Shown here: in pieces, positions 22,263-31,344 of the stretch | Layout: every line of letters begins with the position of its first letter | How positions within the stretch are numbered: the first letter of the stretch is position 1 | NCBI GenBank assembly: GCA_965221775.1 | Contig: CBDCSU010000004.1 | Location: 736,001 to 800,000 of the forward strand | Length of the DNA: 64,000 bases | Direction: 5' to 3' | DNA from: Candidatus Latescibacterota bacterium | GTDB taxonomy: Bacteria; Latescibacterota; UBA2968; UBA8231 | Notes under the pieces: model-generated | Told to the model about the DNA's origin: nothing | The model's database searches: none | What the model saw: only the letters and a program-made list of their open reading frames with translations | Program-made: the position numbers and the translations under genes

Positions 22263-24935
22263 TCAGAACGCCGTCGCCGAGACCGCCTTGGCGATCATCA
22301 GCGTCGCCGCGCAGAACATGCCCACCAGGGACATGCCCACGCCGAAGCCGACGGCCAGGACCATGGCGTACTGGCGCCACTGCTGGCGGCCGTAGCGCGG
22401 CCACAGGTAGTGCTTGGCCACGAGGGCGCCGATGACCTCGGTGAACATGGCGAAGAAGGTCGCCGCCCCGGCCGAGGCCACGCCCCGGATGAAGCCCCAC
22501 ACGAAGAACATGGGCATGCCGAAGAACCCGAGGATCGAGTAGAGGCCGAGGCCGAAGGCCAGGCCCACGACGATGATGGGCCACTTCACGCCGCCCGTGG
22601 GGTGGCGCAGGTCCTCGTCCACCTCGCCGTCGCCGTCGTCGTCCTTCTGGTTGAGTACCTCCTCGTCGGCGAGTCCGTCGAAGTCCTCGTCGCGGCCGTC
22701 GCCCGTCGACTTGGGGTCCTTCCAGTAGATCTGGAAGAACATGGGCGTCTCCACCGAGCTCTGGTAGAAGTCGCCGCGGAAGCCGGGATGGGTGTCCAGC
22801 TCGAAGAGGGTGATCAACTCGCGGTCGTGCCAGGCTTCCGGCAGGCGCACGCGCAGCATGGTCTCGGCGGCGGTCACCACGCCGGCGTCGTCGGGTGACA
22901 GCCTCAGGGGCCGCGGCAGGTCGGGGTTGATCTTGCTGTCGGGAGCCGGCTCCAGCAGGATCGGCATCTGACGGTCGGGGCCGGCTCCGGTGAAGTCGGT
23001 GTAGAAGTGGCCCGTCGCCGACCAGGGGCCGTAGCGGCGCAGCCCGGGGTTGGTGATCTCCACCTCGTCGGTGACGCGCACGCGCCAGTAGTAGAGGGAG
23101 CGGTCCTTCAGGTTGGCCGGACTCCACACCACTTCCCCGGCAGGCAGGACTTGCCCCTCCACCTCCTCCCCGGCCTGGTATGTGAGGCTGTACTGGGTCG
23201 CCGAGAACCGCACCGCTTCCTGGAAGGCGCGGGCCGGCCAGAAGGTCTGCACGTAGGGGTAGGCGTCGGAGGGGATCGGCGCCAGCTTCCACAGGAAGCT
23301 CCAGTACATCAGGCTGGCGCCGAGAACGATCGGCACCATGACCAGCTCCGCCTTCAGGAGGCTGGTGAAGCGCATCCCCGTGAGCTCGATGATGCGGAAG
23401 GTCTCGGCGTTGCCGCCGAAGTCGGCTCCCGCCAAGGGCACGAACCAGATCTCGACGCCGCGGTACCCGGTGAGGAAGACGATCGCCTCGTGCAGGTGCG
23501 GGATCTGCACGTTCTGCCCGATCAGCCCGTCGAGGCGGGCCGAGACGAAGGACATGATCGGCGCGTACACGAAGGCGATGAGGATGATCACCACCAGGAT
23601 GGTGGTGGTGATCAGCGACGGGAAGAGGGTCTTGGCCAGGACGATGGGATAGGCGGAGGCGATGAAGAACAGGGTGAGGCAGATCCACACCGGGAAGTCG
23701 CCGCGGTTGAGGTGCTTCATGCAGTAGCCGCGGATGCGGGCGGGCTCGTTGCACTCCGGGTGCAGGCAGACATCCGGGTCGTGGCCGTGGGTTTTGGCGT
23801 GGGACTGGTCCTCGCGGTGGTCCCGGGTGCCGCGCACCACCTGCACCATGGAGATGACGGTGGTGGCGAAGATGACGCCCAGTCCGAAGGGCTGCCAGAA
23901 GTCGACGCCGGCGGTGATCTGGGTCTGCACGGCGCCCATGCCGGGCACCCAGTGGGGCATGAAACCGTAGTGATGGAGCAGGGGCGACAGGACGATGAAG
24001 GAGACGACGGCGGCGAAGGAGCCCATGACGCTCCAGAACGGCAGCAGCAGGCCGGCGAAGATCGGCGACAGGCTGAAGCTGATGGCGATCGGCGTCGCCC
24101 CGAGGTAGCGTCCCAGGACCGGCGTAAGGTCGGCGAAGGGGATGGGCAGGATCGACACCTTGACGCCGGCGAAGACCTCGGTGAGGGTGGGGATCGCCAC
24201 GTACACGAACCCGAAGACGAGGCCGATCGACCCGCCCATGGTGAAGCAGGGCCACTTCCAGGTCTGTCTCTCCGAGCCGCTCTCCTCGGCCAGGGCCATC
24301 GCCCCGAGGGCGGCCTGGGGCGCCGTGGGGAAGGGCAGGCGCTCGCGGTCGGAGACCAGCCGGAAGAGGACGTACCCCGAGGTGAACCAGGTGATGCGGC
24401 CCACGAGGATGCCGAGCACCAGCAGGGCGATGGGCAGGGCCCAGTCCATGTGCAGGAAGGTGCGCTGCACGATCGCCTCGGAGTCGGGGGCCGGCGAGAA
24501 CCACCCGTGGCCGAGCCACTTCAGGCCCACCAGTTTCTCGGTGAGGCCGAACTGGGCGGCTTCCGGCGAGCCGACGAAGTACTGGCGCCAGATCAGCTGC
24601 AGGAAGGTGCCGGTCTCGGCGCGCACGATCAGCTGCGACGCCACGTACGTGAGCAGGAAGATCTCCTGCCGCCTGAGGGTGGTGAAGGAGCGCTTGGCGA
24701 TCTCCAGGAAGAGGATCACCGTCACCCACTGCGCCGCATCGCCGATGCCGATGCCGGTGACCAGACCCAGGTACATCTGCCCCGGCGTCATGATGAAGGC
24801 GATGAACAGCACCCCCACCAGCGTCTTGATGGTGTACCCGTGCTCGAAGCGCTCCGGCGCCTGCAGCAGATCCCGATACTCGTGGATCTCCTGGTACTGG
24901 CGCTCGCGCTTCGTTTGTCGGCGGTCCTCTGCCAC
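22263..24935 (-). CDS. OPT-like multi-pass peptide transporter with soluble inserts
   Basis: Many hydrophobic helices, ERLPFP.A, LAPIPS..YP motifs; inserted CxxxxC..CxxH, Ig-like and acidic DxDxDG segments. Confidence 0.75.
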   Translation of the reverse strand: MAEDRRQTKRERQYQEIHEYRDLLQAPERFEHGYTIKTLVGVLFIAFIMTPGQMYLGLVTGIGIGDAAQWVTVILFLEIAKRSFTTLRRQEIFLLTYVASQLIVRAETGTFLQLIWRQYFVGSPEAAQFGLTEKLVGLKWLGHGWFSPAPDSEAIVQRTFLHMDWALPIALLVLGILVGRITWFTSGYVLFRLVSDRERLPFPTAPQAALGAMALAEESGSERQTWKWPCFTMGGSIGLVFGFVYVAIPTLTEVFAGVKVSILPIPFADLTPVLGRYLGATPIAISFSLSPIFAGLLLPFWSVMGSFAAVVSFIVLSPLLHHYGFMPHWVPGMGAVQTQITAGVDFWQPFGLGVIFATTVISMVQVVRGTRDHREDQSHAKTHGHDPDVCLHPECNEPARIRGYCMKHLNRGDFPVWICLTLFFIASAYPIVLAKTLFPSLITTTILVVIILIAFVYAPIMSFVSARLDGLIGQNVQIPHLHEAIVFLTGYRGVEIWFVPLAGADFGGNAETFRIIELTGMRFTSLLKAELVMVPIVLGASLMYWSFLWKLAPIPSDAYPYVQTFWPARAFQEAVRFSATQYSLTYQAGEEVEGQVLPAGEVVWSPANLKDRSLYYWRVRVTDEVEITNPGLRRYGPWSATGHFYTDFTGAGPDRQMPILLEPAPDSKINPDLPRPLRLSPDDAGVVTAAETMLRVRLPEAWHDRELITLFELDTHPGFRGDFYQSSVETPMFFQIYWKDPKSTGDGRDEDFDGLADEEVLNQKDDDGDGEVDEDLRHPTGGVKWPIIVVGLAFGLGLYSILGFFGMPMFFVWGFIRGVASAGAATFFAMFTEVIGALVAKHYLWPRYGRQQWRQYAMVLAVGFGVGMSLVGMFCAATLMIAKAVSATAF

Positions 24936-25084
24936 TAAGCCACCTGTCTCGGGGCGGGATCACCCCACAAGAGTTTCGCGCCAGCGAAACTCGCAACAAA
25001 GCCGCGCAGCGGCTTTGCGATCTCCTGATATTGGCGCTCCCGCTTCGTCTGTCGGCGGTCCTCCGCCACTAAGCCACCTGTCTC
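24885..25084. repeat. 66-bp diverged direct repeat (24885-24950, 25019-25084) flanking a 68-bp triple-hairpin insert
   Basis: Both copies hold the RBS region and codons 1-17 of the transporter, with 5 synonymous differences; the spacer has 9-bp stems gagtttcgc/gcgaaactc and caaagccgc/gcggctttg. Confidence 0.92.
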
Positions 25085-28000
25085 ACGACGCCACTTCTTC
25101 CGCCGGCTCGAGCTCCACCTCGCTCGCCGCCATGACCACCTCGCGGCAGTGGACGGCGTGCTCCTCCTGGATGTCGTGCTTCAGCGTCTGCCACACCAGG
25201 AACTGCTTCCGCAGCTCCAGCATGAAGCCGAGGTTGAGGCGCTGCCAGAACGCCACGGGCCCGCTGATGCGCTCGATGTAGAGGTCGATCTCGCAGATCC
25301 GCGGATGGTCGGTGGGCGCGATGGTGAATTGCAGGTACTGGCTCACCCCCATGTCGAAGGGCGCCAGCCACAGCAGCAACTGCACGGTGTGCACCTTGCC
25401 GCCGTCCCCTTCCTCCACCAGGACGCGGGTGCGCTCGGTGTACATGCGGCCCACCGACTCGTGGCCGTACGAGGTGAAGAAGGTGTGGAGGTAGCCGCAC
25501 AGGGACTCCACGGCGTTGACGTTCACCGTGAAGGGGAAGGGGAAGCGCCAGATGTCGTCCACCGGATCGGGCAGCTGCCAGCGCCGCACCACATCGGGCA
25601 CGGCCATCTGCGATGCCGTGCGCGCCGGATAGACGGTGGACAGCAACACGACGGCGATCACCAGCAGGGCCGAGCTGATCGCCGCGGTGGAGGAGTAGTT
25701 GAGGGAGACCCCGCCCAGCAGGTCGAGGGCGAGGAGCACCCGGCCCCCCGCCTGGCCGAGGACGTAGCCGATGACCACGCCGAGGACGCCGTAGACGCAG
25801 GACTCGGCGATGAAGAGGAAGGCGATGTGGACCGGCGCCAGGCCCACCGAGGAGTAGACGCCGATCTCGCGGAAGCGCTCGTACACGGCGCCCATCATGG
25901 TGTTGAGGACGATGAGGGCGGCGATGAGCATGGGGATGACGAGGGCCCCCAGACCCTCCACGCTGGTGGCGCCCATGCTGCTGTAGGCATAGGTCCTCAG
26001 CTCCCCCTCCTCGTCGGGCATGCCCACGAAGAGGCGGAAGGTCGCCCGCGTGAGGTACTCCTCGATCAGCTCGCGGCTCGGCACCTCCTCGTCGAAGGCG
26101 ATGGCCACCGACATGAGCTCGGCCCCCAGGCTCTCCAGCCGGCCGTAGGGCATGACCGCCAGCCGCGCCGAGGGCAGGTGCTCGTAGCCGACGTCGATGT
26201 CGGCGTCGGCGAAGAAGTTGTTCATCATGAACATCTGGTCGAGGCCGGGCATGTTGAACTGCTCGAACTTCTCCTTTGCCGGCGTCAGGGGCTCGTTGTT
26301 CAGGTCGCGCACGTCCTCGAAGAGGTCCGGGTCGTAGATGCCCACGACCTTCCACCCCTGGCCGAAGACGCGCACCAGCGGCCCCTCCCCACGCTCCACC
26401 GCCTCCACCGAAACGCCGAGCTGCTCGGCCACCGGCGCCGCCAGGATGGTGCTGCTCTCCCCGGGGTCGTCGAACCAGCGGCCGGCGAGGAGGGCGCGGT
26501 CGATGCCCGTCACCTCGGTCTCCTCGGGGGTCAGGCCGAGGACGCCGAGGGCGGCCGCCTCCCGCCCCCGGTAGCGCATGGGGATGTAGCCCTCCTCCTC
26601 GAAGCCCATGGTCATCCAGGTCCGCGCCGCCACGGTGCCGGACCCGCCGAAGTGGGAGAACAGGTAGTCGTACACCGGCGGCTCCCAGGACCACCAGTGG
26701 ATGTCGTGCATGAGGACGCCGCGGTAGAGGGGCTCCCAGTCCTTCTCGAAACCGACGAAGCGGATCGCCGGCTTGAAGGAGGTGAAGGAGAGGACGGTGA
26801 AGGTGAGCATGGTGATCGTCGTCAGCGTCAGGCCCGTGCGCAGGACGCGGCGGCGCATGTTGGAGATGCCGAGCATGAAGGCCACGTAGGCGGTGCCCGA
26901 GCGGCTGAGGTCGCCGCTGGCGGTGCCCGCCGCCCGCTGGCGCAGCTCGGTCATGTAGCTGTTGAACCGCGACATGACGAGGGTGATGACGAAGACGGCC
27001 ATGACCATCACCATGAGGGCCAGGAGCACGATCACCGGGTGGGCCAGCTCGAAGGCCGGGTGCACCTGGGCGAGGATCATCCAGATGACCAGCATGATCA
27101 CCGTGAACCAGGCGATCTGGCGGCGGATGTCGGGGGCCGCGAAGAGCAGGCGCTCGGCGAAGAACGCCGCCGGCACCAGCAGGGCGACGAAGAACACGAG
27201 GCCGAGGATGATGTCGTCCTGGGTGCCGCGCACGTCCGGGTAGGCGCGGTACTCCAGGCCGATCGCCTCGCGCACGTACTTGGCGTAGCGGTCCCAGTCG
27301 AGGGCGGCCATCGCCTCCTCGGCCTTCTCCAGGGCGGTGAGCGAGCGCTGGTGCAGGGCGTCGAGGCGCGGGTTCTCGATGGCGAACTGGCGCATGCGCT
27401 CCATGCGCACGTCGTCGAGGCGCCACATGTCCTTCGTCGACTGCAGGCTGGCGTACGGGATCAGGCGCCTCTGCGACAGGTCGAAGCCGGCCCCCTGGGC
27501 GGTGAGCTCGTCCACGGCGCCGGCGTTGTTGAGCAGCACCATCGACTTGTCCACCATGCGCAGCGGCTCCCCCGGCTCTCCGTAGAGGACCATCATGCGC
27601 TCGAGGTAGTCGCCCATGACGAAGCCGTACTGGCGGGGCACGGCGCCGCGGTCGTCGAGGACCTTCATGCTGCGGCTGGAGTTGCCGAAGGTGAAGTGGA
27701 AGCCGGCGTGGATGCGGTCGTGGATCTCGACGCTCTCGGCCTCGAAGAGGATCGTCGTCCACACCGTCTCGGCCTTGGTCAGGCCCTGCTCCCAGGCGCC
27801 GATCTTCTGGGCCCGCTCGCCGTGGTCGGTGGCGAAGGTGACCTCGCCGGTCTCCTTGTCGAGGAGGAAGCCGCGCACCCCGACCTTGCCCTTGGAGAGG
27901 CCCTTGACGGTGTAGTTGCCCTCGTCGTCGGCGAGGGCGATCCAGGGCCGCCACATGTCGGGGTAGTAGTCGTGGAGGATGACGACGGTGCCGTGGGGCA

Positions 28001-29855
28001 CCGGATCCTCGGGGGTGGCGGAGCGCCTCGGCAGCAGCCGCAGCCGGCCGTCGATGGCGACGCGGCGGTCGGGCAGGTTGCGGTCGTGGGCGGGGCCGAG
28101 CTTCTCCCACTCGGGGCCGAAGAGGCCGGGGTCGGCCAGGGCCCGGGTGAGGACCTCGTTGATCATCTCGCTCTGGCGCTGCACGTTGCCGAAGTCGACC
28201 CGGTCCGGCCGGTCCAGGGGGCTGTCGAGGACCGCGCGGCGGTCGGTGGTGGTCACCAGGTTGAGGGTCACCAGGCCCACGTCGCGCGCGATCCGGCCGT
28301 CCTCGATGAAGACGTCGTCGTCGAGGTAGCTGTCCCACGACAGACCCTTGATGGGGCTGACGAGGTTGACGAGACCGTTGGGCTCCCGCCCCAGCGCCGC
28401 GGCGGCCTCGTCGGCGTGGCGCGAGAAGCTGCGCCCGAGGGAGACGAAGAACCGGCGGTGGGCGGAGAGGCGGGCGCTGTGCACCAGACCGACCTGGTCG
28501 GACTGGCTCGACAGGTCGAGGGCCAGGAAGAGATCGATGTCGAGGCTGTCCGGCTCCAGGCGGATGCCGAGGGAGTCGGGCTTGATGCGCCGGCGCTTGA
28601 GCTGCGCCGTGAGACGTTCCAGGTCGACGGACTCGAGGACCGGCCCGCCCCCCGAGTCGCCCAGCCGCACCCCCAGGGTGTCGAGAGGGATGCCGAGGTC
28701 GGCCGTCTGCCGCACCAGCTTGTCCACCTTCAGCGAGTCGGCGACGAAGCGCTTGGGCATGCGGTTGCGGAACAGGGGCAGCCGGCGCGCGTGCCGGTCG
28801 AGGAACTGGAACAGCCCCTGGTCGCCCTGGAAGTGCGAGCCCGTGGCCACCAGCACCACCGAGCGCGCCGGCGGTTGGTCGCGCAGGTGGCGGGCCAACT
28901 CCAGAAGGGCGGCGACGCCGCAGGCGGCCTCGGCGGCGGGCGCGTCCGAGGGCACTACCGAGAGGCCGTCGTAGTAGGCGTGGACGGCTACCAGCTCCTC
29001 CGAAAGCTCCGGGTCGACGCCGGGCACGCGGCCCCAGATCGCCCAGGTGGTGTGGCTCTCGAAGTCCATGCGCGCCCGAAGGCGCACCGGCAGCTCCCCC
29101 TCGCCGAGACGCTGGCGCAGGCCCAGGGCCGCCTGCCGTCCGAGCCAGAACCGGGGCACGTCGACGGGGGTCCAGCTCCACTTGGTGCGCGACTCGAAGT
29201 TCGTCGTCTCCTCGGGCTCGACGAAGACGATCGCCCCGGCGCCGAGGGCGGCGGCGTTCTTCCAGTTCGTCCAGGTGTTGTACTCCATCAGGACGACGGC
29301 GCCGTCCATGACGTGTCCGTTGAAGTCGGCGTGCTCCCCGGCGCCGCCGTAGAACAGGTGTCCGCGCCGGCCCTCCGGTCCGAGGGTGTTGGTGCGCACG
29401 AGATTCGGCCACAGCGACTGCAGCGGGATCGTCTCCAGCACGCCGCCGCCCTCGTCGAGCAGCTCCATGGAAGCGCCGTGGTCCATGGGAACGACGATGT
29501 CGTAGGGCTCGCGCTGCACCTCCCGCACGCCAGCGGCCTTCAGCTCCCGCTCCACGAAGTCGGCGGCGAAGCGGTCCCCCGGGTAGCCGGCGATCCGCGA
29601 CCCGTGGGAGGAGAGCTGGCGGATGGTGTGGGCGATGCGGCCGAAGGCGTCGTCCTCGGGGGCCTGCTCGACTTGCGCGGGGGCCGGCGATGCGGCAGCC
29701 GGCGTCGATTCAGCGGGGGCCGGCGGCGCGGCGGCCGGCGCGGCTTCCGCGGAGGATGTCACCGGGGAAGCCAGGACCGGCGATGAGAGGGCCAGGGCCA
29801 GCGCCGGCAGGAGCGGCCGCCAGGAGGCGCCGCGAAGACGGGCGGTGCTTCTCAT
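25083..29855 (-). CDS. Large envelope protein: signal peptide, PA/M28 peptidase-like domain, TM block, FtsX-like permease
   Basis: MRSTARL...LALALSSPVLA; AYYD..VP..AP.A...GVAALLELAR; NMRRR.LRT.LT; VYERFREIGVYSSVGLAP (FtsX); ATGA overlap with upstream gene. Confidence 0.85.
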   Translation of the reverse strand: MRSTARLRGASWRPLLPALALALSSPVLASPVTSSAEAAPAAAPPAPAESTPAAASPAPAQVEQAPEDDAFGRIAHTIRQLSSHGSRIAGYPGDRFAADFVERELKAAGVREVQREPYDIVVPMDHGASMELLDEGGGVLETIPLQSLWPNLVRTNTLGPEGRRGHLFYGGAGEHADFNGHVMDGAVVLMEYNTWTNWKNAAALGAGAIVFVEPEETTNFESRTKWSWTPVDVPRFWLGRQAALGLRQRLGEGELPVRLRARMDFESHTTWAIWGRVPGVDPELSEELVAVHAYYDGLSVVPSDAPAAEAACGVAALLELARHLRDQPPARSVVLVATGSHFQGDQGLFQFLDRHARRLPLFRNRMPKRFVADSLKVDKLVRQTADLGIPLDTLGVRLGDSGGGPVLESVDLERLTAQLKRRRIKPDSLGIRLEPDSLDIDLFLALDLSSQSDQVGLVHSARLSAHRRFFVSLGRSFSRHADEAAAALGREPNGLVNLVSPIKGLSWDSYLDDDVFIEDGRIARDVGLVTLNLVTTTDRRAVLDSPLDRPDRVDFGNVQRQSEMINEVLTRALADPGLFGPEWEKLGPAHDRNLPDRRVAIDGRLRLLPRRSATPEDPVPHGTVVILHDYYPDMWRPWIALADDEGNYTVKGLSKGKVGVRGFLLDKETGEVTFATDHGERAQKIGAWEQGLTKAETVWTTILFEAESVEIHDRIHAGFHFTFGNSSRSMKVLDDRGAVPRQYGFVMGDYLERMMVLYGEPGEPLRMVDKSMVLLNNAGAVDELTAQGAGFDLSQRRLIPYASLQSTKDMWRLDDVRMERMRQFAIENPRLDALHQRSLTALEKAEEAMAALDWDRYAKYVREAIGLEYRAYPDVRGTQDDIILGLVFFVALLVPAAFFAERLLFAAPDIRRQIAWFTVIMLVIWMILAQVHPAFELAHPVIVLLALMVMVMAVFVITLVMSRFNSYMTELRQRAAGTASGDLSRSGTAYVAFMLGISNMRRRVLRTGLTLTTITMLTFTVLSFTSFKPAIRFVGFEKDWEPLYRGVLMHDIHWWSWEPPVYDYLFSHFGGSGTVAARTWMTMGFEEEGYIPMRYRGREAAALGVLGLTPEETEVTGIDRALLAGRWFDDPGESSTILAAPVAEQLGVSVEAVERGEGPLVRVFGQGWKVVGIYDPDLFEDVRDLNNEPLTPAKEKFEQFNMPGLDQMFMMNNFFADADIDVGYEHLPSARLAVMPYGRLESLGAELMSVAIAFDEEVPSRELIEEYLTRATFRLFVGMPDEEGELRTYAYSSMGATSVEGLGALVIPMLIAALIVLNTMMGAVYERFREIGVYSSVGLAPVHIAFLFIAESCVYGVLGVVIGYVLGQAGGRVLLALDLLGGVSLNYSSTAAISSALLVIAVVLLSTVYPARTASQMAVPDVVRRWQLPDPVDDIWRFPFPFTVNVNAVESLCGYLHTFFTSYGHESVGRMYTERTRVLVEEGDGGKVHTVQLLLWLAPFDMGVSQYLQFTIAPTDHPRICEIDLYIERISGPVAFWQRLNLGFMLELRKQFLVWQTLKHDIQEEHAVHCREVVMAASEVELEPAEEVAS

Positions 29856-30577
29856 GCCTCGCCCGTGCGCCTGCGGAAGAAGGCGTCCCAGTCGCGGGTC
29901 GGCTCGAAGCCGAGGATGCGGCGCGCCTTCTCCCACGTGTAGGTCCCGGGGCCGCGGTACGAGAGCACGGGGAAGCACTGGAAGTCGTCGGGGATCGACT
30001 CCGCCTCCAGGGCCAGCCTGCAGATGTGGTGGAGATCTTCCCAGACCACGGTGAAGGGGGGCGCCGCCCGCGGCCCGTCCGCCGGCTCCGGCGCCGGCCC
30101 CAGGCCGTTGAAGACGAAGTAGGCGGTCTGGATGCCGTGGGCCTGGGCGAAGACCCGGCAGATCTCGGCGCTCAGCCACTTGGAGAGCATGTAGAGGCTG
30201 CTGCCCGGCGTGGCGGGCGCGTCGTCGACGCCGAAGTCGTGATCGTAGGCGTAGCGCAACCCCTGGGGGCCGGAGTGGATGACCTTGCCGATCCCCAGCT
30301 CGGCGGCGGCCTTCATCACGTGCCAGGCGCCGGCGGTGTTGACGTCGTAGCTGTCCACCGCATGGTCGCGGACGACGGTGAAGTTCATGATCGCCTCCAT
30401 CCCCCGCGCCGCCTCCAGGACCTGCTCGTAGCAGCGCACGTCGACGTGCTCGATGGGGAGGCCCGCCGGGTGGGGCTTCACGTCGGTGAGGCGCAGGTCG
30501 TAGTCCTTCTCCAGGCCCGGCGCGAGATCGGGCCCCACCAGGCCGGAGGCGCCCAGGAGGAGGACCTTCTTCTTCAT
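29852..30577 (-). CDS. NAD-dependent epimerase/dehydratase
   Basis: VLLLGASGLVG, YMLSK (YxxxK), EKARRILGFEP. Confidence 0.88.
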   Translation of the reverse strand: MKKKVLLLGASGLVGPDLAPGLEKDYDLRLTDVKPHPAGLPIEHVDVRCYEQVLEAARGMEAIMNFTVVRDHAVDSYDVNTAGAWHVMKAAAELGIGKVIHSGPQGLRYAYDHDFGVDDAPATPGSSLYMLSKWLSAEICRVFAQAHGIQTAYFVFNGLGPAPEPADGPRAAPPFTVVWEDLHHICRLALEAESIPDDFQCFPVLSYRGPGTYTWEKARRILGFEPTRDWDAFFRRRTGEA

Positions 30578-31344
30578 GCGCCGGCCGCCGCCGCCCACTG
30601 GCGGCGGAAGTCGTGCCGCGGCTCGAAGCCCATCCCGCGCATGCCGTCGAGGAGGAACTTCGGGTGCGGCGGCTGGTGGCAGACGTGCCGCACCTGCCAG
30701 CGCCCGATCCAGTTGCGGGCGCCCGCGTGGTCGCGGCCCAGGGCCAGCCCGACGGCGGCGGCCGCATCCCGCGGGTCGAGCCAGCTGAGGTCCGGCTCGC
30801 TGCCCGCCGCGACTTGGTCCTCGCGGACCAGGCGTCCCAGCCGCAGCACGGTGACGCCGAGGGCGTAGTCGCGGGCGAACTCGCGGGTGACCTGCTCGGC
30901 CAGGTGGTACGCCAGCCGCTTCATGGCGGTCCCCGGCCGCGGCCGGTGCTGGTCGGAGACGTACACGTCGTCCGGCACCTCGTGGAAGACCTCCAGGGAG
31001 CTGCAGTAGACGAGGCGGCGGACGCCGGCTTCGACGGCGGCTTGCAGCAGGACGCTGGTCCCCCGCGTGGCGCGGTCGAGGAGGGCGCGCTCGCCCTCGC
31101 AGGAGTCGGCGGGAGGAAGGGCGGGGGGACCGGCGGGACCCGTGTGGACGATGGCGTCGACGCCGCTCACGGCGTTGCCGGCGCCTTCGGGGTCGTGGAG
31201 ATCGGCGTCGACGATGTCGATGCCGGAGGGGCCCGGTGCTTCGGAGTCCGGGTGCCGGGCGACCCGGAGGCGGTGTTCCCCGGAGAGCCTACGGAGGAGG
31301 ATGGTTCCCATGCGGCTCGTACCCTCGGATACAAGAATCCGCAT
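30574..31344 (-). CDS. NAD-dependent epimerase/dehydratase-like protein (degenerate motifs)
   Basis: ILVSEGTSRMG, AAVEAGVRRLVYCSS, TVLRLG; canonical GxxGxxG and YxxxK are altered. Confidence 0.75.
   Translation of the reverse strand: MRILVSEGTSRMGTILLRRLSGEHRLRVARHPDSEAPGPSGIDIVDADLHDPEGAGNAVSGVDAIVHTGPAGPPALPPADSCEGERALLDRATRGTSVLLQAAVEAGVRRLVYCSSLEVFHEVPDDVYVSDQHRPRPGTAMKRLAYHLAEQVTREFARDYALGVTVLRLGRLVREDQVAAGSEPDLSWLDPRDAAAAVGLALGRDHAGARNWIGRWQVRHVCHQPPHPKFLLDGMRGMGFEPRHDFRRQWAAAAGA

Follow-up and report, generated by a model that had tools for sequence, protein, structure and literature searches.

A three-hairpin insert between two copies of a gene start in a Latescibacterota operon, with a candidate relay reading frame

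The window considered here is a stretch of 64,000 nucleotides from Candidatus Latescibacterota bacterium (source genome G000), in which a permease gene and the gene of a polytopic membrane protein, both on the minus strand, meet at a junction where the ribosome-binding site (RBS), the start and the first 17 codons of the downstream gene occur twice, the two copies enclosing a 68-nt spacer made of three hairpins. The locus raises the question of how a structured spacer came to lie between two copies of a gene start and how ribosomes may still pass from the first gene to the second. The answer proposed below is that a small hairpin element entered a junction at which the two genes were translationally coupled, that the resident target was duplicated over a long stretch, and that the small open reading frame (ORF) generated in this way may relay translation across the insert; taken as a whole, this history has about an even chance of being correct.

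In gene sense, the junction opens with copy A1 of the duplicated target (25019..25084, minus strand, like the other parts of the junction), recognised by the repeat search and by its sequence, which contains a Shine-Dalgarno-like AGGTGG (25074-25079), a spare copy of the stop, a spare start GTG (25067-25069) and codons 1-17. The inserted element, spacer S (24951..25018), follows with hairpin A (24997-25017), the tetranucleotide TTGC, hairpin B (24971-24992) and hairpin C (24951-24966), and leads into copy A2 (24885..24950), the functional one, with AGGTGG at 24940-24945, the true start GTG at 24933-24935 and codons 1-17 of the 890-aa gene. The two copies form a single repeat family of 66 nt with two members (24885-24950 and 25019-25084), identical at 61 of 66 positions (92%) and separated by 134 nt from start to start; their five differences are all silent and the same 17 residues are encoded, so that the duplication of the RBS region and of codons 1-17, reported in a preliminary description of this DNA, is confirmed.

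The spacer holds two perfect 9-nt inverted repeats, 24971-24979/24984-24992 with a loop of 4 and 24997-25005/25009-25017 with a loop of 3, while hairpin C has 6 bp, one G-U pair included. Hairpin B is a 22-nt core with a 9-bp stem and the loop TGGC in gene sense, and is identical to a high-copy repeat of unrelated phyla. Folded alone, S forms the three hairpins at -38.8 kcal/mol (z = -5.03; none of 200 shuffles as stable), in agreement with its first description as a series of stem-loops; the fold of the whole 161-nt region is unremarkable (z = -1.30, 20 of 200 shuffles as good). Each hairpin pattern occurs once in the window versus 0 expected from 100 shuffles, and the repeat search found internal hairpins only, with no terminal inverted repeats at the spacer ends.

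The bridging, or leader, ORF runs over 44 codons (24935..25069), that is, the spare start with the 17 duplicated codons and 27 codons through the hairpin element, and its TAG (24935-24937) overlaps the true GTG. The 44-aa and 890-aa ORFs have base 24935 in common (TAGTG, 24933-24937) and their first 17 residues are identical; the ORF list thus bears out the leader ORF as it was first proposed.

The joining of two strains during assembly has a negligible probability as the source of this layout. G000 is a metagenome-type assembly with a contamination of 7.75%, and short-read contigs break at the repeat, but the same A-S-A (copy-spacer-copy) order is found in the sister species G007 and G006, assembled in 2 contigs and 1 contig, and contigs of two other, independent metagenome studies bridge it (X5 over 24921-25079 with 1 difference, X6 over 24939-25027). 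In addition, a contig of run X1, probably the source sample, spans the entire stretch with 0 differences; the runs in which the stretch is found come from sponge metagenomes. In X6, a contig of low depth (depth 3.3, side 27) has 8 other letters in place of 24958-25081, between 24957 and 25082; it may derive from a co-occurring relative having a short junction without A1 and hairpins A and B, and is too weak to be used.

Filled and empty junctions in relatives

Three relatives (G001, G005 and G016) have no insert: the upstream stop overlaps the downstream start as TAGTG or TGATG, the intergenic length is -1, and the start codon of these insert-free orthologues is homologous to the A2 start. In a tree obtained from 2.4 kb of the flanking genes, G000 and three relatives branch as (G006,(G000,(G007,G002))); G008, with an insert, is sister to G005, without one, and G003, with an insert, is sister to the insert-free G001. 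Full-length matches to S were found in 4 of 76 genomes of the family, always at this junction, and a further 2 of the 76 have short partial matches (19-22 nt, E ~0.005). The G008 and G005 junctions differ by the insert and by a duplication of ~27 nt, gapped and found by reading, which lies under the 30 bp taken as the lower limit of a long target duplication. A related hairpin occupies the same junction in G023, a member of another genus, between two 38-nt copies of its own, quite different gene start, and a decayed hairpin remnant is present in G009. G002 has only GTG and S before A2, yet is nested in the clade; since a piece of the A1 ribosome-binding region still precedes its spacer, it derives from A-S-A by a deletion of ~56 nt. 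On these comparisons the spacer is foreign to the ancestral junction. In another genus, the orthologous junction L013 (G010:C38) has a 104-nt, locally AT-richer spacer with neither hairpin B nor a bridging ORF, and the two genes may be uncoupled there.

A long target duplication is marked by direct repeats of more than 30 bp that are present in one copy in an insert-free relative, and this is the state of the 66-nt repeat, which is single-copy in G001, G005 and G016. Its source is indicated by the other filled junctions, in which both copies carry sequence proper to the lineage (ATGGCGGAAAAA in G006, GGTAGAGGC specific to G008, and the unrelated start in G023); therefore, the second copy derives from the target already in place and did not come from outside. 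The duplication lengths across loci (66, 38, ~27 and 19-47 nt) are not fixed. By this comparison the 66-nt repeat is a long duplication of the local target and not a copy carried by the element; of the preliminary proposal of a mobile element provided with its own target copy, the insert and its membership of a repeat family are supported, and the own target copy is contradicted by the lineage-specific sequence in G006, G008 and G023.

The five silent differences were also taken at first as a sign that both copies had evolved under coding constraint, and this does not follow from their distribution. GCA is found in A2 of G000, G007 and G002, and GCG is kept in the A1 copies and in G006; CAA (codon 7) and CGC (codon 10) are private to A2 of G000; CAA (codon 13) and TAT (codon 14) are common to A1 of G000 and both G007 copies, which differ from each other at only one site. 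Polarised with G007, G002 and G006, three of the five changes fall in the functional copy; the other two look like conversion or allele mixing or exchange, and an independent metagenome has G007-type letters at 24897 and 24906 in A2. The functional gene, in which silent changes are to be expected, was thus the site or the source of most of the changes, so that they are no proof of coding constraint on A1; the G006 copies, in fact, differ by CCC/TCC, which is non-synonymous, and by CGC/CGA.

Hairpin B as a member of a repeat family

Spacer S and hairpin B each occur once in the 5.36 Mb of G000. The exact 22-nt hairpin B has 31 copies among the matches listed for a looser pattern, in Pseudomonadales, Ca. 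Azophilus, Vicinamibacterales, Solirubrobacterales and others; the looser pattern, with 18 specified bases, includes chance palindromes, and only exact 22-mer copies were used from its listed matches. The copies of other phyla share the layout of S, with an upstream GC-rich hairpin, TTG(G/C) and hairpin B, and in G007 the identity with the high-copy repeat extends to 28 nt. With at most 2 mismatches, hairpin B is present in 178, 216, 138 and 115 copies in four genomes (G092-G095) and in 4 copies in a fifth, the backwards control giving 0; in the high-copy genomes its units stand in modular arrays, often just after stop codons. These data point to S as a member of a family of repeats with many copies in other phyla and almost none left in this lineage; the uniqueness of the spacer, which had been set as a condition against the mobile-element reading, holds for full-length S in G000 and fails for its core hairpin, with 115-216 copies per genome elsewhere. 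Closer to the window, 6 of 132 genomes of its class hold a variant of the hairpin whose stem has 8 bp. The covariation of hairpin A over 35 copies is weak, with 4 pairs changed on both sides and 83.7% of cells pairing in an alignment partly out of register, and it carries no weight here.

As to the arrays, in G092-G095 (L035-L141, L278-L297; Pseudomonadales, Ca. Azophilus, Vicinamibacterales) a two-hairpin unit ending in hairpin B is found in modular and tandem arrangement, at times within a composite of ~130 nt. Two intervals between neighbouring copies in G094, one delimited by an inverted pair and one by copies in the same orientation, contain QueG-like, AlgH-like and amidohydrolase genes and no transposase.

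Some copies outside the window also lie between duplicated gene ends. Among 11 loci of the class with the 8-bp-stem variant, 4 (the G023 junction and L275-L277) score 16.5-25.5 on flank repeats, compared with a control mean of 9.0 and a 95th percentile of 12.5. In particular, L275 (G008:C217), L276 (G001:C119) and L277 (G001:C123) are 3' gene ends with imperfect duplications of 19-47 nt comprising the last codons and the stop codon, and at L288 (G094:C1, ~3873186, Vicinamibacterales) the unit is placed between two 33-nt copies of a gene end with 4 mismatches, the stop codon included. The flanking sequence that L275 and L276 have in common suggests one gene seen in two species. Three more high flank scores among 51 exact copies of the high-copy genomes (in L073 and L137) are due to tandem arrays; long flank duplication as a general property of the high-copy family is ruled out, with one gene-end case among the 51. 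The preference for gene ends may reflect survivorship, an insertion near a gene end being tolerated only if the duplication rebuilds that end. On an Acidimicrobiales contig (L063), from a metagenome-assembled genome, the same stem with another loop is accompanied by an exact flanking duplication of at least 30 nt, ~52 nt by reading, including half the hairpin.

The bridging frame, the hairpins and the flanking genes

All seven junctions with hairpin B (G000, G007, G002, G006, G003, G008 and G023) have an ORF that opens at the spare start, crosses the insert and has a stop overlapping the true start; the overlap or abutment of a stop with the next start that defines a coupled chain is thus found here (TAGTG, 24933-24937) and at 7 of 7 junctions. 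The stop lies at an offset of -2 except in G023, where it is +5, and the lengths are, in the order given, 44, 44, 28, 44, 28, 30 and 34 codons. The frame in which hairpin B is read changes from lineage to lineage, so that conservation does not lie in the peptide. In G003, G008, G023 and G009 the small ORF also begins on an overlap with the upstream stop, and in G002 an in-frame start survives the deletion of ~56 nt. Under a null model with random frame and shuffled interior, the chance of such an ORF is 0.07-0.18 per event, and the product over 5 events is 1.4e-5, a naive value that assumes independence.

Termination-reinitiation is reported, in the passages of the sources that treat it, to need overlaps or very short gaps (PMC10666635, PMC6728339); a structured insert of 134 nt would therefore break the coupling unless it were translated across. 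The structured start region of Salmonella mgtCB is reported to be opened by a small ORF lying between genes (PMC8092293). In the history proposed here, the two genes would initially have been coupled by a stop/start overlap, and a small element consisting of a variable hairpin A, TTGC, the conserved hairpin B and a tail would have been inserted at this point, a long stretch of the resident target (66 nt in the present case) being duplicated with it. Copy 1 would then have supplied the end region of the upstream gene and copy 2 the beginning of the downstream gene, from its RBS to codon 17, and the 44-codon ORF would be made up of the element with the spare start before it and the spare stop after it. 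Ribosomes arriving from the upstream gene or loading at the spare Shine-Dalgarno would read this ORF, melt the three hairpins on their way and stop at the true GTG, the coupling being relayed across the insert. On the sequence comparison, the small ORF probably keeps the translation of the two genes connected, a claim that is judged as apt to hold as to fail; how the element is inserted, and whether the ORF is translated with an effect on expression, are conjectural parts of this account.

The hairpins are conserved in a manner of their own. Positions 1-48 of S, that is, hairpin A, TTGC and hairpin B, are identical in G000, G007, G002 and G006; in the last 20 nt, the region of hairpin C, 8 of 20 sites vary in the four species, and at fourfold sites of the downstream gene 41 of 219 (~19%) differ between G000 and G006. 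The chance of 48 unchanged neutral sites is ~5e-5 (0.81^48), and these figures argue that hairpins A and B are themselves under a sequence constraint of some other kind than ribosome transit. A search of Rfam with the window and 10 family loci had no hit that reached threshold; the best match was TD-2 (RF03162), over the whole model and on the plus strand, opposite to the operon, with 24.4 bits versus a gathering score of 48.7, and eight Spirochaete loci with the same stem had no TD-2 match at E up to 0.01. The fold and covariance search suggested at the outset thus returned a strong three-hairpin fold and no Rfam family at threshold. Between 24500 and 25500 there are 0 terminator-like sites, no U-run follows any of the three hairpins, and a scan of the junction found no promoter-like site. 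The leader had been viewed as a possible translation-coupled attenuator; coupling is favoured by the comparison of the seven junctions, while the intrinsic terminator that follows the leader in a leader-peptide attenuator is missing from the interval scanned.

The genes on either side were defined by the ORF list and by family searches. The upstream gene (25083..30767, minus strand, stop TGA at 25083-25085) encodes 1894 aa with an FtsX-type permease domain near the C-terminus (Pfam FtsX, 7.2e-12, residues 1609-1721) and a weak M28 peptidase match (Peptidase_M28, 1.4e-4, residues 584-643); its MacB/FtsX/LolC matches are weak and every NCBIfam match is far under its cut-off. The downstream gene (22263..24935, minus strand) encodes a polytopic membrane protein of 890 aa without a recognised family and with no sequence match in Pfam, NCBIfam or PDB. 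The family searches give no basis for its earlier label as a transporter, the sole lead being a match, scored highly by the search, to a cluster named automatically "peptide transporter". G000 has several paralogous pairs of permease and 890-aa genes with 72-79% DNA identity (C4:358298-358858, C5:267429-267938, C6:234070-246040); in the two that were checked (C4 and C5) the spacing of the matches indicates a junction without insert.

Competing explanations and known systems

A number of observations weigh against the proposed history, and they touch both the insertion and the relay. With regard to the insertion, no long flanking duplication is seen at 6 of the 11 class loci with the 8-bp-stem variant, gene-end duplication is rare in the high-copy genomes (1 of 51 exact 22-mer copies, L288), and searches for a partner enzyme were negative: the REP-associated tyrosine transposase (RAYT) domain Y1_Tnp (PF01797), for which a search had been suggested, has no match in five genomes (G000 and G092-G095), the control search being positive in 6 of 14 known genomes, and DUF559 has matches in G092-G095 and none in G000, with 0 of 7 DUF559 loci having hairpin B within 1.5 kb, by which a DUF559 nuclease is ruled out as the partner. 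Furthermore, G006 has a 35-nt partial second spacer upstream of copy 1 (S*-A-S-A, period 134), which fits better a tandem duplication, in which the element would first have settled in a short intergenic spacer and the 134-nt unit of element, RBS and 17 codons would then have been doubled, the first element being lost in G000 and G007 and partly in G006. Tandem repeats readily expand and collapse, and deletions at this site do occur, as in G002; however, the same two steps would be needed again at G008, G023, L275-L277 and L288, each with a single element between target copies, and the piece of the copy 1 ribosome-binding region kept before the spacer of G002 marks that junction as derived from A-S-A, so that tandem duplication is unlikely. 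A further rival, in which a copy of the gene start arrived with the element from another strain, through att-type integration or homology-facilitated illegitimate recombination, is very improbable. Differences that are silent only are what alleles of two strains would be expected to show, copy 1 of G000 has G007-type alleles at 4 of the 5 sites, and the independent metagenome has them at two of these sites in copy 2; nevertheless, both copies in G006, G008 and G023 share lineage-specific sequence quite unlike copy A of G000, the element-side copy is not foreign to the host lineage as an att-type origin would demand, and there is no integrase-sized cargo.

With regard to the relay, the product of chances assumes independent events, and with one ancient insertion the argument becomes that of frames surviving later indels; in G009, where the hairpin is decayed, a 17-codon ORF stops 9 nt before the start; the spare Shine-Dalgarno has decayed from AGGTGG to AGGCGG in G007 and G006; the contigs of RNA run X17 do not cover 24870-25085, and translation of the bridging ORF is presumed from its frame; and ribosome transit cannot explain the base-for-base identity of A and B, so that another constraint acts on them. 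The decayed Shine-Dalgarno and the inexact coupling in G009 would suit a neutral scar, in which insertion and duplication are real and the 44-codon ORF is a by-product without a role in expression. Its start and stop come free with the duplication, stops are few in GC-rich DNA, a right frame without stop has a chance of 0.07-0.18 per event, and the junctions may share ancestry; but the frame is kept at 7 of 7 junctions despite different insert lengths and hairpin frames (product 1.4e-5), and the in-frame start of G002 is retained after its deletion, which leaves the scar somewhat improbable. The identity of A and B would be accounted for by a selected RNA or DNA device, in which they form a cis element (an mRNA stabiliser, a processing site, a protein-binding site or a translation-dependent switch) that the leader controls or tolerates. 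The 0 changes in 48 nt among four species against ~19% at fourfold sites, the identity of hairpin B base for base across phyla and the strong fold (z = -5.0) speak for it; on the other hand, no Rfam family reaches threshold (TD-2 24.4 versus 48.7), no terminator- or promoter-like site was found, G001, G005 and G016 do without the element, and its abundance elsewhere, with hundreds of copies per genome, suggests a selfish repeat and not a gene-specific regulator, so that such a device is improbable though of some weight.

If insertion with long target duplication and a relay ORF is the right history, an operon would have absorbed a structured mobile insert at a stop/start overlap, its most fragile point, without losing coupled translation, and the by-products of the insertion would have become a relay ORF. 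Small hairpin elements with long target duplications would also gain a bacterial case, in a lineage associated with sponges. A 22-nt hairpin alike base for base in distant phyla and present in hundreds of copies, with no RAYT, points to a partner protein, which phylogenetic profiling could seek. A wider proposal, tentative and on the doubtful side, is that of a cross-phylum class of undescribed gene-less hairpin elements that duplicate 20-70 nt of their target and so rebuild a gene end or start, the host keeping a translated relay ORF and hairpins A and B being read by a widely shared protein. A literature search on the repeat sequence and on long target duplications retrieved neither a description of such hairpin elements nor the 22-mer, and nothing that joins long variable target duplications to small palindromic repeats.

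Among known mobile sequences, some miniature inverted-repeat transposable elements (MITEs) land in or between genes, such as the Correia elements and the Rickettsia palindromic elements. Like the element proposed here, they are structured, small and non-autonomous, share the transcript of neighbouring genes and are at times traversed by translating ribosomes; in contrast to MITEs, the present spacer ends have no terminal inverted repeats and the target duplication is of 19-66 nt versus 2-10 nt. The short GC-rich intergenic palindromes, often placed after stop codons, the modular tandem arrays and the hundreds of copies in some genomes recall the repetitive extragenic palindromic (REP) elements and the related BIMEs and REPINs, but the element differs from the REP/REPIN-RAYT system in that neither G000 nor the four high-copy genomes have a Y1 transposase, G000 holds one copy, and the same core is found in different phyla; the GTAG-type head of REP elements is also missing. 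A REP/RAYT identity is ruled out by the lack of Y1_Tnp in the five genomes. Resemblance to TD-2 RNA (RF03162, clan CL00124) is limited to the three hairpins and to a middle stem that starts with GAGUUU and ends with AAACUC, the score being below the gathering value and the strand opposite to the operon.

Restriction-modification units have been described with target duplications that are long and variable (Furuta, Abe and Kobayashi 2010, PMC2853133), and for IS1549/IS1634 target duplications of 8-514 bp are given with no mechanism known (De Palmenaer et al. 2008, PMC2266710). As far as the relevant passages of these papers go, the present locus shares with both the direct repeats of tens of bases, single-copy in insert-free relatives, variable in length and often at gene ends, and differs from both in an insert of ~50-70 nt without genes, the published cases being kilobase gene units or full insertion sequences; a mechanism is established for neither. 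On the side of translation, the TAGTG/TGATG overlap at the end of the bridging ORF, and in G003, G008, G023 and G009 also at its start, is of the kind described in the cited passages on termination-reinitiation coupling, and a small ORF whose translation would unfold a structure before the next start is comparable to what the mgtCB report describes in part. In contrast to the coupled chains and to mgtCB as presented there, the small ORF of this junction would have arisen from the insertion of a mobile element with duplication of its target, and its translation is presumed. Palindromic repeats and insertion with long target duplication are known kinds, and the distinctive traits of this locus are a putative relay ORF that has been kept repeatedly and a 22-nt hairpin common to different phyla, for which no partner enzyme was found in the genomes searched.

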